A stretch of 64,000 nucleotides of DNA from Octopus vulgaris (taxonomy: Eukaryota): positions 214,644,001 through 214,708,000 of the forward strand of contig OX597814.1 in assembly GCA_951406725.2 (NCBI GenBank). Direction: 5' to 3'. Made by a program: the position numbers and the translations under genes. Below are positions 3,540 through 52,707 of this stretch, in pieces. Every line of letters starts with the position of its first letter. Positions within the stretch are counted from its first letter, which is position 1. The notes under the pieces are model-generated. The model had not been told where the DNA came from. It ran no database searches and saw only the letters and a list, made by a program, of their open reading frames with translations.

Positions 3540-4125
3540 GGCTCATTTAAAAGTACCCTTCAATTGTCAGGCAATAGGCTATGCTTGAGAAAGCCTGTTG
3601 AGTCAAGAGAAGCCTGTTTAAAAGTACTCAGCAATTATCGGGCAATATGTTGTGCTTAAGGAGACCTGTTGAGTCAAGTGAAATCTTATAGTGGCCGATG
3701 CTAGTGTTGCCTGACTGGCACCTGTGCCTTTGGGATGTAGAAAGCACCATTTGAGCATGGCCAATGCTGGTGGCAGTTAAAAATCACCATTTAAATGTGT
3801 ATTTCTTTACTACCCACAAGGGGCTAAACACAGAGAGGACTAACAAGGACAGAAAAACGGATTAAGTCGATTATATCGACCCCAGTGCGTAACTGGTACT
3901 TCATTTATCGGCCCCGAAAGGATGAAAGGTAAAGTCAACCTTGGCGGAATTTGAACTCAGAACGTAGCGGCAGACGAAATACGGCTACGCATTTCGCCGG
4001 GTGTGCTAACGTTTCTGCCAGCTTGCCGCCTTTAAATGTGGTCGATACCAGTGCCACCAGACTGACCCTCCCATTCCGGTGGCATGTAAAAAGCACCCAC
4101 TACACTCTTGGAGTGGCTGGCGTTA
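3540..4125 (+). mobile_element. RTE LINE 3' UTR fragment interrupted by SINE B
   Basis: Contains ggtggcatgtaaaaagcacccactacactc...ggcgttag as in 8000-8488. Confidence 0.7.
3801..4030 (-). mobile_element. SINE family B (central gactttgcctttcatcctttcggggtcgataaa domain)
   Basis: Matches 13224-13455; TSD tttaaatgtg at 3790-3799 and 4031-4040. Confidence 0.88.
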
Positions 4126-4215
4126 GTCAGTATTGCTTTTGAATGTATTTTGAATCTAAGTAGTACAGTTATCAAAACTGGTGCAATTGCTGTGTGAAAT
4201 AGTTTCGCCAGAAGT

Positions 4216-4600
4216 GGAGGCGCAATGGCCCAGTGGTTAGGGCAGCGGACTCGCGGTCATAGGATCGCGGTTTCGATTCCCAGACCGGGCGTTGTGAGTG
4301 TTTATTGAGCGAAAACACCTAAAAGCTCCACGAGGCTCCGGCAGGGGGTGGTGGTGATCCCTGCTGTACTCTTTCACCACAACTTTCTCTCACTCTTACT
4401 TCCTGTTTTCTGTTGTACCTGTATTTCAAAGGGCCGGCCTTGTCACTCTCTGTGTCACGCTGAATATCCCCGAGAACTATGTTAAGGGTACACATTGTCT
4501 GTGGAGTGCTCAGCCACTTACACGTTGATTTCACGAGCAGGCTGTTCCGTTGATCAGATCAACCGGAACCCTCGTCGTCGTAACTGACGGAGTGCTTCCC
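4216..4600 (+). mobile_element. tRNA-headed SINE (body 1 + tail X)
   Basis: A box tggcccagtgg, B box gtttcgattcc; three near-identical copies in the window. Confidence 0.92.
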
Positions 4601-5755: not shown

Positions 5756-6010
5756 TGGCACTTGTGCTGGTGGCATGTGAAAAAACATTCGAGTGAGGTC
5801 GTTGCCAGTACCACCTGACTGGCCCTCATGCTGGTGGCATGTAACAGCACCCACTACACTCTCAGAGTGGTTGGCATTAGGAAGGGCATCCAGCTGTAGA
5901 AACTCTGCCAGATCAAGATTGAAGCCTGGTGCAGCCATCTGGTTCACCAGTCCTCAGTCAAACCTTCCAACCCATGCTACCATGGAAAGCGGACGTTAAA
6001 CGATGATGAT
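5755..6010 (+). mobile_element. RTE LINE 3' end with (GAT)n tail
   Basis: Ends gcggacgttaaacgatgatgat. Confidence 0.85.
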
Positions 6011-6012
6011 AT

Positions 6013-6525
6013 ATCATCATCATTGTTTAACGTCCGCTTTCCATGCTAGCATGGGTTGGACGGTTCAACTGGGGTCTGGGAAACCAGGAGGCTATACCAG
6101 GCCCAGTCTGATCTGGCAGTGTTTCTATAGCTGGATGCCCTTCCTAACGCCAACCACTCCGTGAGTGTAGTGGGTGCTTTTTACGTGCCAGCCGAGGTTG
6201 GCAACGGCCATGATCGATTGGTGCTTTTTATGTGCCACCGGCATGGAGGCCAGTCGGGGCGGCTCTGGCAATGGCCACATTCAGATGGTTCTCTTATGTG
6301 CCACCGGCACTGGTATCACAACTACAATTTCCATTGATTTTGATCGATTTCGATTTCACTTGCCTCAACAGGTCTTCACAAGTAGAATTTTGTGTCCCAA
6401 GAAGGAAAGGTATGCATAAGTGGACTGGCTACATCCCAGGTAGAGGCCATGGGTTATGGTCTCACTTGTCCTGCCGGGTCTTCTCACGCCCAGCATACTT
6501 CCAAAGGTCTCGGTCACTAGTCAAG
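6013..6525 (-). mobile_element. RTE LINE 3' end including last codons
   Basis: Reverse complement of the 7940-8488 type; minus-strand TSDRDLWKYA; (GAT)n tail. Confidence 0.85.
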
Positions 6526-7717: not shown

Positions 7718-8486
7718 TGTAAGTACCTTGAAAGAAATGTTGGACCTAAGAAGCATCAGCTGTGGTGTGCAAGAGAGACGATTGCGCTGGTATGGTCATG
7801 TGGCGAGAATGGATGAAGATAGGTGTGTGAAAAAGTGCCAATCCCTAGCAGTTGAGGGAACCTGTGGAAGAGGCAGACCCAGGAAGACCTGGGACGAGGT
7901 GGTGAAGCATGACCTTCGAACTTTAGGCCTCACCGAGGCAATGACTAGCGACCGAGACCTTTGGAAATATGCTGTGTGTAAGAAGACCCGGCAGGACAAG
8001 TGAGTCCAGCCCACTTATGCATGCCTTTCCTCCCTTGGACACACAAAGACCTGTTGAGGCAAGCGAAGTCAAAATCGAACCTCATCTGACGACAGGCACC
8101 CATGCCAACCTCCCTTCATTGGACACTAAACTCTGCTTACGAAGACCTGTTGGGGCAAGTGAAATCGAAATTGAACCAATCCTATGACTGGCACCCGGCA
8201 GTTGCCAGGACCGCTGGACTGACTCCTGTGCAGGTAGCAAGTGAAGAAACACCATTTCGACCCTGTGCTTGAGGAGATCCATTGAGTCAAGTACACCAAC
8301 ATCAAAATCAATGGAAACTGCAGTTGTGATCCCTGTGCCGGTGGCATGTAAAAAGCACCATCCGAACGTGGCCGATGCCAGCGCCGCCTCGACTGACTTC
8401 TGTGCTGGTGGCACGTAAAAAGCACCCACTACACTCACGGAGTGGTTGGCGTTAGGAAGGGCATCCAGCCGTAGAAACACTGCCAG

Positions 8487-11420: not shown

Positions 11421-11460
<40 letters not shown>

Positions 11461-11542
11461 AATTGCAGCGTGGAAGGTGTTTGTAAGCCATTTAAGAAAC
11501 ACACAAAAGCCGTTTGATTCACTTCGACATTTAAGTTTAATA

Positions 11543-11589
11543 TGTCAAAATATTTTCGTCGCTTTAAGACCATGACCTGTTCACTGACA
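11543..11589 (-). ncRNA. Hammerhead-like motif, G3:C8 core variant
   Basis: tgtca GTGAACA ggtcatggtcttaaagcgac GAAA atat TT tgaca. Confidence 0.6.
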
Positions 11590-11635
11590 AAAATCCATGA
11601 TGCATCACGGATTTTTGAGATGCAGCACGGATTTT

Positions 11636-11682
11636 TGTCAGTGAACAGGTCATGGTCTTAAAGCGACGAAAATATTTTGACA
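11636..11682 (+). ncRNA. Hammerhead-like motif, G3:C8 core variant
   Basis: Helix I tgtca/tgaca, core GTGAACA 11641-11647, GAAA 11668-11671, palindromic stem III AATATT. Confidence 0.6.
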
Positions 11683-12099
11683 TATTAAACTTAAATGTCG
11701 AAGTGAATCAAACGGCTTTTGTGTGTTTCTTAAATGGTTTACAAACACCTTCCATGCTGCAATAGTTTTCGTTCCAGTACATGATCTCAGATCAAATCAC
11801 TTGCTATGCAAGTACATCTCCGTATATATATATATTTATATATATATAAACACATACATTCATACACACACACACACATGATGTATGAATATACTCCATT
11901 GATGCTTTCTTTAACCCATGTTGCCAAATGTAACATTGGTGGCTTCTTCTTTATCTCTTGATTTCCAAATGTTCTGAAAGCATCTGTCTTAGTCTCCTTG
12001 TATTGCTGATGAAATATTACTGTTTTCTGGGTAGGAGTAAGATACTTTCCAGTTCTGCATGCATCCAACAATTCTGCTTACTGCATAATTAGTGAAGGC

Positions 12100-15001: not shown

Positions 15002-15274
15002 TGTATGTATGTATGTATGTATGTGTGTGTGTATATATATATATTGTGTATATATATATATATATATATATATTGTTGCATTTTGGGATGGTCATTTTTT
15101 TTTGCTAAATTAACACACACACTAAATTTTTTTTTATTCACTCGTTAATTACTCTTCTTATTTTATTACTTTAACTCATGTCCATGAGTTAAAATAATAA
15201 AATAAGAACAGTAATAAATGAGTGAAGAAAAGTGTATATAGTGTGTGTGTTTATTTGGCAAAAAAAAAATGACT

Positions 15275-30939: not shown

Positions 30940-31538
30940 TAGTCAACCTTGTGGTTAGACCATAGCCAGTGCCAGGCCGTAGCCAGCGCCGCCCGACTGA
31001 CCTCCGTGCTGGTGGCATGTAAAAAGCACCATCCGACCGTGGCCGTTTGCTAGCTTTGTCTGGTCCCTGTGCCAGTGGCACGTAAAAAGCACCATCCGAT
31101 CGTGGCCGTTTGCCAGCCTTGTTTGGCACCTGTGCCGGTGGCACGTAAAAAGCACCATCCGATCGTGGCCGTTTGCCAGCCTCGTCTGGCACCTGTGCCG
31201 GTGGCACGTAAAAAGCACCATCCGATCGTGGCCATTTGCCAGCCTCGTCTGGCACGTAAAAAGCACCATCTGACCGTGACCATTGCCAGCTTTGTCTTGT
31301 CCCCGTGCTGGTGGCACGTAAAAAGCACCATCCGATCGTGGTCGTTTGCCAGCCTCGTCTGGCACCTGTGCGGGTGGCACGTAAAAAGCACCCACTACAC
31401 TCACAGAGTGGTTGGCGATAGGAAGGGCATCCAGCTGTAGAAACACTGCCAGATCAGACTGGGCCTGGTGCAGCCTTCTGGCTTCCCAGACTCCAGTTGA
31501 ACCGTCCAACCCATGCCAGCATCATAAGCGGATGTTAA

Positions 31539-41060: not shown

Positions 41061-41114
41061 GTATGTATGTATATATATATAATCAAAATAAGCAACAAGA
41101 ATGACTCCGGTAAT

Positions 41115-41200
41115 TTGGTACGATCATTTCATACTACATCATTTTATTAAATGTTGTAAGTATTACAACAGTTTTAAAATGCTGAGCACTCATCAGCCAA
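41115..41200 (-). ncRNA. Type I HHR motif
   Basis: ttgg CTGATGA gtgct...agtat GAAA tgatcg TA ccaa. Confidence 0.8.
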
Positions 41201-41402
41201 TTATAGAGGTTTTCTATTAATACAAAAATTTTCATATCAAGTGGCAACATTGTAGAGAAGGTAGATACATATTCAAAGATGTGGATTTAAATTTTAAGAA
41301 CATTCTTGAAATTTAAATCCACATCTTTGTCTATATATCTATCTTCTCTATAATGTTGCCCCTTGATATGAAAATTTTTGTATTAATAGAAAACCTCTAT
41401 AA

Positions 41403-41488
41403 TTGGCTGATGAGTGCTCAGCATTTTAAAACTGTTGTAATACTTACAACATTTAATAAAATGATGTAGTATGAAACGATCGTACCAA
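41403..41488 (+). ncRNA. Type I HHR motif, intact
   Basis: ttgg CTGATGA(41407-13) gtgct-cagcatttta-aaac-tgttgtaa-tac-ttacaaca-tttaa-taaaatgatg-t-agtat GAAA(41473-76) cgatcg TA ccaa; stem III palindrome ACGATCGT. Confidence 0.88.
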
Positions 41489-41662
41489 ATTACCGGAGTA
41501 ATTCTTGTTGCTTATTTTGATTATAATCACCCCGCGAATTTTTATGGATAACACCATACAGACTTCTGGTGCATCTAAATTAAGTACCATATTCATTTGA
41601 ATCTAAGTTTTTGCTGAATGTATATATATATCTGTAAAATAATACATGACAATTATTCAATA

Positions 41663-41757: not shown

Positions 41758-42183
41758 TCAAAATCGAAGTCGATCAACATCAATGGAAATTGTAGCTGTG
41801 ATACCAATGCCGGTGGCATGTAAGAGAACCATCCGAACATGGCCATTGCCAGCACCGCCCCGACTGGTCTCCGTGCTGGTGGCACGTAAAAAGCACCATC
41901 CGATTGTGGCCATTGCCAGCCTTGTCTGGCCCCCGTGCCAGTGGCACATAAAAAGCACCATCCGATCGTGGCCATTTGCCAGCTTCGTCTGGCACCTGTG
42001 CAGGTGGCACGTAAAACGCACCCACTACACTCACAGAGTGGTTGGCGTTAGGAAGGGCATCCAGCTGTAGAAACACTGCCAGATCAGACTGGAGCTTGGC
42101 ACAGCCTTCTGGCTTCCCAGACCCCAGTTGAACCGTCCTACCCATGCTAGCATGGAAAACGGACGTTAAACGATGATGATGAT
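41758..42183 (+). mobile_element. RTE 3' UTR fragment
   Basis: UTR units and (GAT)n tail. Confidence 0.85.
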
Positions 42184-45530: not shown

Positions 45531-46190
45531 ACGGCAAGCCAAGTGAGACCATAACCATGGCCTATTCCAGTGCAGCATTACTGGTCCATTTAAGAGTACC
45601 CTTTAATCATTTGGCAATAAACTGTGCTTGTGAAGACCTGTTTAGTCAAGTGAAGTCATTGTTAAGTTCGATGCCAGTACCACCTGACTGGCACCTGTGC
45701 CAGTGGCATGTAAAAGGCACCATTTCACCATGGTCGATACCAGTGCCACCTGACTGGTCCCATGCTGGTAAAAAGCACCATTCAAGTGTGGCTGTTGCCA
45801 GTGCCATATGAGTGGCTTGTAAAAGCACCATTTGAGCATAGTCATTGCCAGTGTTGCCTGACTGGCTCCCACGCTGGTGACATGTAAAAAACACCATTCA
45901 AGCATGGGTCATTGCCAGTGTCGCGCTGACCAGCTCCTGTGCCAGTGGCATGTAAAACGCACCATTCAAGCGTGGCCGAAGCCAGTACTGCCTGACTGGC
46001 CCTCATGCTGGTGGCACGTAAAAAGCACCCACTACACTGTTGGAGTGGTGGGCATTAGGAATGGCAAACAGCTGTAGAAACCTTGCCAGATCAGAGTGGA
46101 ACTTGGTACAGCCTTCTGGATTGCTAGTCCTCATTCAAACTGCCCAACCCAAGCCAACATGGAAAATGGATGTTAAACGATGATGATGAT
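45530..46190 (+). mobile_element. RTE 3' UTR with multiple units
   Basis: Repeated aaagcacca units and (GAT)n tail. Confidence 0.82.
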
Positions 46191-48450: not shown

Positions 48451-48486
<36 letters not shown>

Positions 48487-48624
48487 CGGAGATGTACTCG
48501 CATAGCAAGTAATTTGATCTGAGATCGTGTGCTGAAACGAAAACAATTGCAGCGTGGAAGGTGTTTATAAGCCATTTAAGAAACACACAAAAGCCGTTCA
48601 ATTCACTTCAACATTTAAGTTTAA

Positions 48625-48674
48625 TTTGTCAAAATATTTTCGTCGCTAAAATCCGCGACCTGTTCACTGACAAA
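48625..48674 (-). ncRNA. Hammerhead-like motif, G3:C8 variant, best-preserved copy
   Basis: tttgtca GTGAACA g-gtcgc-ggatttta-gcgac GAAA atat TT tgacaaa; 7-bp helix I, 5-bp helix II. Confidence 0.68.
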
Positions 48675-48689
48675 AATCCGTGCTGCATC

Positions 48690-48735
48690 TCAGTGAACAG
48701 GTCGCGGATTTTAGCGATGAAAATATTTTGACAAA
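48690..48735 (+). ncRNA. Hammerhead-like motif, G3:C8 variant (helix I cut by the inversion junction)
   Basis: tca GTGAACA ggtcgc...gcgat GAAA atat TT tga. Confidence 0.55.
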
Positions 48736-48959
48736 TTAAACTTAAATGTTGAAGTGAATCGAACGGCTTTTGTGTGTTTCTTAAATGGCTTATAAACACC
48801 TTCCACGCTGCAATTGTATATATTGGTGACACAAACTTTCATTCACACTTTGAATTTGGTGATACTGGTAACGGCTTTAGCTCGCTCTGATACTATGAGT
48901 TGAGGTGATGTCTTCTAGTACCTCGAAATTTAATATACAATTATTCATAATTGTAGAGT

Positions 48960-49050
48960 CCTACGCTGATGAGAAATATAGTTGGGTAAGACATAATTAT
49001 CTAATTCTTATGCTTTCCTAAAACTTAATTTCGAAACGTACGCCCGTAGG
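48960..49050 (+). ncRNA. Type I HHR motif (U16.1 is C)
   Basis: cctacg CTGATGA gaaat...atttc GAAA cgtacg CC cgtagg. Confidence 0.8.
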
Positions 49051-49536
49051 TGACTTAATATTGTATGATTGTCGTCATTTCTTTCTCTCTTGCCTGCGTT
49101 TGCCTTTCAAGTGCGGTGGTTTTACTGAGATCCCACTTTTAGTAGAAGGAATAGCTATAACTCTTTGACTGCTATTTCTAAACTCGGTGTGTGGTGAGGC
49201 AAATCGTTGCTAAACCCTTAATTACTTAGTATTACTTAAACTTTCCTCGAATGGGGCTTTTACATGCCGAAATCTACTTGGTGAAATTAATGATTATTCC
49301 AAATTAATTGATTTCACCCTATATTATTACTGATAACCATATTTCATCCCAGTAAATGACCACAACATCTTGTCCGGGCGGCACGCTGGTGGGAGGGGGT
49401 TGGTGACATAAACTTTCATTCACACTTTGAATTTGGTGATACTGGTAACGGCTTTAGCTCGCTCTGATACTATTAGTTGAGGTGATGTCTTCTAGTACCT
49501 CGAAATTTAATATACAATTATTCATAATTGTAGAGT

Positions 49537-49627
49537 CCTATGCTGATGAGAAAAATAGTTGGGTAAGACATAATTATCTAATTCTTATGCTTTCCTAAAA
49601 CTTAATTTCGAAACGTACGTCCGTAGG
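49537..49627 (+). ncRNA. Type I HHR motif, intact GUC
   Basis: cctatg CTGATGA(49543-49) gaaa...tttc GAAA(49610-13) cgtacg TC cgtagg; stem III palindrome ACGTACGT. Confidence 0.9.
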
Positions 49628-49805
49628 TGACTTAATATTGTATGATTGTCGTCATTTCTTTCTCTCTTGCCTGCGTTTGCCTTTCAAGTGCGGTGGTTTT
49701 ACTGAGATCCCACTTTTAGTAGAAGGAATAGCTATAACTCTTTGACTGCTATTTCTAAACTCGGTGTGTGGTGAGGCAAATCGTTGCTAAGCCCTTAATT
49801 ACTTA

Positions 49806-49840
<35 letters not shown>

Positions 49841-49844
<4 letters not shown>

Positions 49845-49962
49845 GGAGTAAACACATAAATGTGAGACAAGGTGGAGAAAAGAGTACTCAAATACCAGTG
49901 GTAGAGTAATATGCTTTATTTAAAGCATTTAAAGCATTATTGTCTGCTGCATTAAATAAAGT
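49841..49962. mobile_element. Truncated member of the 52444-52672 family
   Basis: ccggagtaaac...gagtactcaaataccagtggtagagtaatatgctttattt is the reverse complement of 52592-52672. Confidence 0.75.
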
Positions 49963-52334: not shown

Positions 52335-52444
<110 letters not shown>

Positions 52445-52476
52445 TTTATTTTAAGCAGCAGAAAATTCAACAAAAT

Positions 52477-52514
52477 CTGTTACTCTGAGTTTCTCATTGC
52501 CGTTCATCAGACAG
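52477..52514 (-). ncRNA. Minimal type I HHR motif
   Basis: ctgt CTGATGA acggcaatga GAAA ctcagag TA acag. Confidence 0.8.
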
Positions 52515-52529
52515 TTATTCTAGCAAAAA

Positions 52530-52567
52530 CTGTCTGATGAACGGCAACGAGAAACTCAGAGTAAAAG
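52530..52567 (+). ncRNA. Minimal type I HHR motif
   Basis: ctgt CTGATGA a-cg-gcaa-cg-a GAAA ctcagag TA aaag. Confidence 0.78.
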
Positions 52568-52669
52568 ATTTTGTTGAATTTTCTGCTGCTTAAAATAAAG
52601 CATATTACTCTACCACTGGTATTTGAGTACTCTTTTTTCCACCTTGTTTCACATTTATGAGTTTACTCC

Positions 52670-52707
<38 letters not shown>

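Follow-up and report, generated by a model that had tools for sequence, protein, structure and literature searches.

Can a hammerhead ribozyme persist in nature with its conserved core pair inverted, as the normal state of a mobile-element lineage? This question is raised by a 64,000-nucleotide stretch of the Octopus vulgaris genome (assembly GCA_951406725.2, contig OX597814.1, positions 214,644,001 to 214,708,000, forward strand; hereafter, the window). Its minus strand carries a hammerhead-like motif within the remains of a Penelope-like element (PLE). The base pair between C3 and G8 is a hallmark of the active hammerhead fold and was proven by laboratory swaps; in the window motif, these positions are G3 and C8. 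A natural, high-copy G3:C8 lineage would be the evolutionary counterpart of the laboratory swap experiment, and it bears on whether PLE hammerheads have any need for cutting. We conclude that the motif is probably a minimal type I hammerhead in the pseudo-long terminal repeat (pLTR) of a PLE with a C-terminal endonuclease, in which the swap arose in the ancestor of a sub-clade and has been kept since, with cleavage predicted. For the narrower statement that it is a homologue of PLE hammerheads with a lineage-level swap, our confidence is very high.

From helix I to helix I, the motif spans 48625..48674 on the minus strand. The seven base pairs of helix I (48674-48668 with 48631-48625) are followed by the core box GUGAACA (48661..48667, with G3 at 48667, N7 at 48663, C8 at 48662 and A9 at 48661). 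An extra G at 48660, the five base pairs of helix II (48659-48655 with 48646-48642) and loop II together occupy 48642..48660. The remainder (48632..48641) comprises GAAA (48641-48638), the palindromic stem III AAUAUU (A15.1 at 48638 to U16.1 at 48633) and U17 at 48632, so that the cleavage triplet, UUU, is of the NUH form. By hammerhead numbering, cleavage is predicted to separate 48632 from 48631. The three-way junction is provided by helices I and II together with the A15.1-U16.1 pair, and the core nucleotides U4, G5, A6, A9, G12, A13 and A14 are all present. The literal CUGANGA box is absent, the window motif having G3 and C8, which can form a Watson-Crick pair.

The original prediction had proposed this arrangement from the sequence alone, and our parse and descriptor find each part (helices I and II, GUGAACA, GAAA, the AATATT stem III and UUU) where it had been placed. 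The prediction also regarded the extra G before helix II as a departure from type I. The nucleotide is there, but it is not anomalous: an extra nucleotide after position 9 and before 10.1 is a known feature of the minimal type I hammerheads of metazoan PLEs (Cervera and de la Pena 2014, PMC4209133; here and below, comparisons are with the portions of the cited reports that our search covered). The window motif also has the G10.1-C11.1 pair and the palindromic stem III of that class.

Folded alone, the motif forms helices I and II at -15.4 kcal/mol (z = -3.9), and 1 of 200 shuffled sequences folds equally well. With every Watson-Crick combination permitted at 3:8, a strict descriptor matches the window only at 48625-48674, and it has one match, not G:C, in 20 block-shuffled windows. 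An Rfam scan returned no hammerhead family among the best 150 of 246 matches; those listed are low-complexity, microRNA-like matches and fall under their gathering scores.

The swap is not peculiar to this copy. In the genome (2.8 Gb in 227 contigs), the G3:C8 pattern has 5,990 matches (3,039 + 2,951), counted as arms rather than elements, and a reversed control has none. Single changes are much rarer, with 377 matches altered at position 8 and 177 at position 3. GTGAACA is present in 55 of the 57 arms of the 30 best loci (two places being counted twice), and contigs of four sequencing runs show no variant at position 3 or 8 among the matches listed. With C3:G8 in its place, the same pattern has 101 genome matches, mostly to a related family (family C) that shares the tail of the window motif's own family (family A).

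Older families carry the swap as well. A search for G3:C8 hammerheads with a different base before G3 gave 1,422 matches against 2,086 in the control, so no other large G3:C8 family of that kind is present. However, when position 7 was also freed, this search revealed two older families, D1 and D2, which have C at N7 and other loops. To avoid circularity, their copies were located through helix II while every box position was set to N, and the box was then read: G3 is present in 18 of 19, C8 in 17 of 19 and both in 16 of 19, with C3 and G8 in none. Downstream of the motif, the D1 consensus (21 copies) is 76-78% identical to family A and the D2 consensus (7 decayed copies) 56-60%. Both differ from family A at N7, loop II, the length of stem III (AAUU versus AAUAUU) and the outer pair of helix I. 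In D1, the shorter stem III is still palindromic, and the helix I pair is G-C for U-A. Given the 5,990 matches against 377 and 177 single changes, and the G3 and C8 of D1 and D2, G3:C8 is a lineage state and not decay.

The opposite state marks the sister families. Families B, C and E have the tail in common with family A and a C3:G8 box; family B, which is young and intact, and the small family E are 52-54% alike to family A downstream. Family B includes many open frames of 1,310-1,312 amino acids (loci L167-L170, for example L168:2263-6198). An alignment of 18 rows chosen by hand has GC at 3:8 in 11 rows and CG in 7, with no row unpaired, although relatedness inflates such counts. Positions U4, G5, A6, G12-A14, A15.1 and U16.1 are invariant in all 18, N7 varies, and one pair of helix II shows a compensatory G-C/A-U change among families. 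The natural G3:C8 mobile-element lineage that had been proposed is thus borne out: the genome scan and family alignment find that the consensus keeps GUGANCA, GAAA and the helices, D1 and D2 share the swap, and the sister families have C3:G8.

The swap appears to be a single event. On a tree of 88 downstream sequences, the 3:8 label is clustered, requiring 3 changes against 27 when shuffled, though this tree is noisy, with flanks partly included, an unsettled bootstrap and weak support (65/91), and is no more than compatible with one origin. A family A copy at L245:1352 has C3:G8 in one arm and G3:C8 in the inverted arm, from either a double reversion or conversion by family C.

What is the element? 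Locus L163 contains a hammerhead, an open reading frame (ORF) and a second hammerhead, the period being 4,261 nt. The ORF, whose start lies 90 nt beyond the box, is broken in this locus by a stop codon and frameshifts; a 1,025-amino-acid open frame, cut at its 5' end, is present in locus L161. The endonuclease domain GIY-YIG (PF01541) scores above its cut-off in both of the family proteins scanned, and a CxxxCxxC linker precedes it. The assignment of the family A ORF as a reverse transcriptase (RT) rests on sequence features, namely a YVDD motif and homology: it is 55% identical to a sister ORF over 815 amino acids and 28% to a PLE ORF that matches RVT_1. Protein relatives number 6,997 matches, of which the best 150 are listed. 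The family therefore has the features of endonuclease-positive (EN+) PLEs, with a single ORF in which RT, judged by motif and homology, is joined to a C-terminal GIY-YIG. It also has pLTRs from partial tandem copies (L163 and L161), inverted 5'-truncated copies and one-sided tails. The CxxxCxxC linker and the (TA)n flanks point to the Neptune/Nematis type of C-terminal-endonuclease PLE, an assignment suggested by linker and target. A different Penelope/Poseidon-like PLE, with RVT_1 and weak GIY-YIG matches, lies beside or nested with some family A copies (L125:1927-4365, L122:1-607 and L178:6096-7088).

Like the window copy, the 30 best genome matches consist of fold-back arms with one tail in a (TA)n target, and their centre is variable. 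An inverted copy with a tail is a signature of PLEs (PMC8557442, PMC11167929). The 3' ends form two clusters, containing 80 and 96 of 198 matches in the loci examined, with the second about 58 nt further on; these fit the two RT start sites that give PLE tails (PMC11167929). A genome search with the tail alone gave no matches, in a search method that skips very common words.

Many copies share a 5' start, and in 20 of 25 of these it is preceded by a G at a position that is C or T in the genome; without the nine copies that share the junction of the query, the figure is 11 of 16. This G fits copying of a capped, uncut transcript, being presumably an untemplated, cap-derived nucleotide; fold-back microhomology is another possible source. 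Some PLEs have an intron in the pLTR or 5' untranslated region (UTR), and just upstream of the start, 443 longer copies contain a stretch resembling a branch point and pyrimidine tract. At L124:7640-7664, such a stretch ends in CAG directly before the common start and might serve as a splice acceptor, as an initiator or in both roles. We considered the reading that the start reflects a spliced template and find it less likely: no matching donor is apparent by eye, and the cap-derived G fits better. No spliced joint was seen, in a stretch that contained no donor. The sequencing runs listed as containing the stretch (21 rows, 4 organism labels) include no RNA run.

We propose the following scheme. 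In the ancestor of one PLE sub-clade, the tertiary pair C3:G8 would have become G3:C8 and been retained afterwards; the C3G change could have occurred in one step by inversion of TCA-C-TGA, which gives TCA-G-TGA. Transcription would start about 15 nt before helix I. In a short transcript, the lone hammerhead could not close its palindromic stem III and would stay uncut, so that copying of such transcripts would preserve their 5' end. Two motifs could pair through the palindrome as a double hammerhead when the transcript is tandem or has the form pLTR-ORF-pLTR. There, G3:C8 would position residue 8, with its 2'-OH, as C3:G8 does, and a slow, probably protein-assisted cut after U17 would release unit-length element RNA. 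In our model, the double hammerhead has -28.8 kcal/mol, compared with -30.8 kcal/mol for two monomers. Small PLE hammerhead variants, which like this one have a short stem III, cleave as dimers (summarised in PMC6765202). Residue 8 provides the general acid through its 2'-OH (PMC6155905), and pairing of 3 with 8 is confined to the active fold (PMC3884650). With C17, the activity of G3-C8 is lower (PMC3884650); the G3 families avoid C17 and have U17. Engineered C3G/G8C recovers part of the cleavage of a protein-dependent PLE hammerhead (PMC11167929). On balance, we lean toward expecting measurable self-cleavage from a dimer or from a construct with an extended stem III.

Several observations weigh against this scheme. 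Some of them favor the main alternative, which is that the motif derives from a hammerhead but is catalytically silent, its fold serving as a binding or a translation or transcription signal at the 5' end of the transcript and G3:C8 being structural. Copy ends do not pile up at the cut: among 34 arms unanchored by the search patterns, one begins at the predicted site and eight begin 5' of the ribozyme. Cores in the clade also tolerate damage, as family B, the most intact sister family, combines C3:G8 with A9C (box CUGAUGC) in all three distinct sequences seen, and in family C the base of helix I is imperfect. By hand count, G is found at position 8 in 36 of the first 100 of the 377 position-8 variants, and C at position 3 in 15 of the first 100 of the 177 position-3 variants, giving an apparent genome-wide excess of G3:G8 over C3:C8 copies. 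These G3:G8 copies may form a minor sub-lineage, mark a hot spot or result from exchange with family C. Locus L175 has G3:G8 in both pLTRs (4076-4246 and 7951-8120), so sources with a broken pair can transpose. Moreover, U17 is a weak cleavage site. The swap is apparently one event, so that the covariation counts are not independent. Pfam RVT_1 has no match in the two family fragments scanned. In published work, hammerhead mutants had no effect on insertion in vitro and Anolis showed no RNA ends at the cut site (PMC11167929), and PLE minimal hammerheads have low activity (PMC4209133). What a silent fold explains poorly is that U4, G5, A6, G12-A14, A15.1 and U16.1 are invariant in 18 of 18 rows, with N7 variable, across families about 50% alike downstream, that stem III stays palindromic despite its change in length, and that the 3:8 pair belongs to the active fold. 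We consider silence unlikely, although it deserves to be taken seriously.

Considerably less probable is a founder accident, in which a decaying motif acquired C3G through the TCA-C-TGA inversion, G8C was unrelated, and the pair is coincidental or was kept for another signal such as a splice-acceptor CAG. The inversion does yield the observed TCA-G-TGA exactly, the swap has one apparent origin, and the splice-like stretch stands upstream in the 443 longer copies. The inversion, however, explains the crossing of the fitness valley and not the retention of C8, and both changes persist, with no other core change, across families that differ by 22-44% downstream. By a post hoc estimate, two chance core changes would fall at 3 and 8 and be complementary about once in 165 cases. 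We find it very hard to credit that the locus is a fold-back DNA element, like a miniature inverted-repeat transposable element, or a microRNA-like hairpin that resembles a hammerhead by chance. This would account for its 275-bp inverted repeat and for a weak mir-1295 match (46.5 versus a gathering score of 100), but not for the variable centre, the one-sided tail, the linkage to an RT/GIY-YIG ORF or the canonical hammerheads that sister families carry at the corresponding position. The complete unit in L163 refutes it. A non-LTR retrozyme was rejected as well, since copies are fold-back or ORF-linked and the window contains no short hammerhead tandem array. Metagenome matches to the clade pattern (14 stretches) are all GC-rich and lack helix I, and were taken as chance.

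We therefore return to the PLE hammerhead with an inherited swap. Retention of the pair in reciprocal form argues that the active geometry has been selected over the long term, while the G3:G8 copies and the sister family with A9C show that departures are tolerated in the short term. The strongest version, an active natural hammerhead lineage whose inverted pair was held by selection through the whole radiation of the sub-clade beside C3:G8 sisters, is one that we advance tentatively, with the balance tipped slightly to the negative. If it is true, the chemistry of cleavage counts for the survival of PLEs, even though one insertion can proceed without it. GUGANCA hammerheads may then be missed by CUGANGA descriptors, including in elements now called hammerhead-less. 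Searches for hammerheads should accept every Watson-Crick combination at 3:8, and this one genome offers a matched natural panel of C3:G8, G3:C8, G3:G8 and A9C.

How much of this has been described? Like the PLE hammerheads in PMC4209133, the motif resides in a pLTR and occurs in thousands of scattered single or inverted copies. It differs in its helix I of 7 rather than 4-5 bp, in a 4-nt palindromic insert in stem III and in the G3:C8 double transversion, which the portion of that report covered does not describe. The descriptor published there begins ^cuganga and would miss the swapped core, as the original prediction had anticipated. The same report gives a natural 3:8 covariant, U3-A8, in Schistosoma, and U3:A8 core covariants were also reported by Perreault et al. 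2011 (PMC3088659). These share with G3:C8 a natural compensatory change of the tertiary pair, but U3:A8 involves two transitions via a wobble, whereas G3:C8 involves transversions via mismatches.

The PAc hammerhead of the Anolis Poseidon element (Frangieh et al. 2024, PMC11167929) likewise lies at the pLTR-ORF junction, in an element whose ORF start holds two sites of RT initiation, giving a tail, and whose targets are AT-rich. In that system, however, C3G/G8C was made in the laboratory, whereas in our lineage it is the wild type; the ORF starts inside the hammerhead there and after it here; and the CxxxCxxC linker is absent in Poseidon. The EN+ PLEs Neptune and Nematis (Craig et al. 2021, PMC8557442) resemble our element in having RT followed by C-terminal GIY-YIG, a CX2-5CxxC linker, inverted 5'-truncated copies, a tail and a (TA)n bias; their tails measure 30-40 nt compared with about 60 nt here. 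In the literature searched, natural 3:8 covariation is U3:A8 only, and G3:C8 appears only as an engineered rescue. We found no report of a natural G3:C8 hammerhead in that literature, whose coverage was partial and does not establish absence from print. The original prediction did not know of a described mobile-element family to which the motif belongs; the element is Penelope-like. Both the element class and the ribozyme class are known; the core variant is old and lineage-wide, and its sister families show the reciprocal state.

The window copy itself is a dead, 5'-truncated fold-back insertion with a tail. The motif stands at the centre of the 275-bp inverted repeat (48543-48817), whose arms are 94% identical. 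The long arm (48483..48691, minus strand) is the 3' end of the pLTR, with the common 5' start at A 48690 and a G before it; it extends past the hammerhead and the 5' UTR as far as the tail's end. It includes the first 31 codons of the ORF (48483..48575, minus strand; MAYKHL...), a frame that continues into the ORF in L163; the distal part, 48483-48543, is the unpaired tail, and a (TA)n target microsatellite adjoins it (48452..48484). The short inverted arm (48690..48817, plus strand) is a second, tailless, 5'-truncated copy with a damaged hammerhead (G3 at 48693), in which the 5' strand of helix I is cut back and C11.1 is changed to U. The original prediction treated 48625..48735 as one best-preserved copy; the motif is real, but this range spans the centre of the inverted repeat and includes part of the second copy. 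On modeling, the whole region would form one long hairpin if both arms were transcribed together. A second, older fold-back copy of the family lies at 11457..11857 (plus strand), with G3:C8 boxes at 11641 (+) and 11584 (-).

Other repeats surround these copies. Directly beside the insertion, 48823-49809 is a tailed partial tandem repeat, with a direct repeat of 410 bp (98.5%), resembling the pLTR of a different PLE family. Another fold-back element with a tail, at 52444-52700, has minimal hammerheads with the canonical box CUGAUGA, one at 52510 (-) and one at 52534 (+), and its tail matches 49809-49900. Further long inverted repeats occupy 171-401, with a CUGAUGA box at 257 (-), 5835-6190, 15091-15273, which resembles the region downstream of the motif in family C, and 41078-41525. 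An abundant repeat family with tandem units of 62-68 bp occurs many times in the window, for example at 31006-31392, 41808-42022 and 45812-46029.
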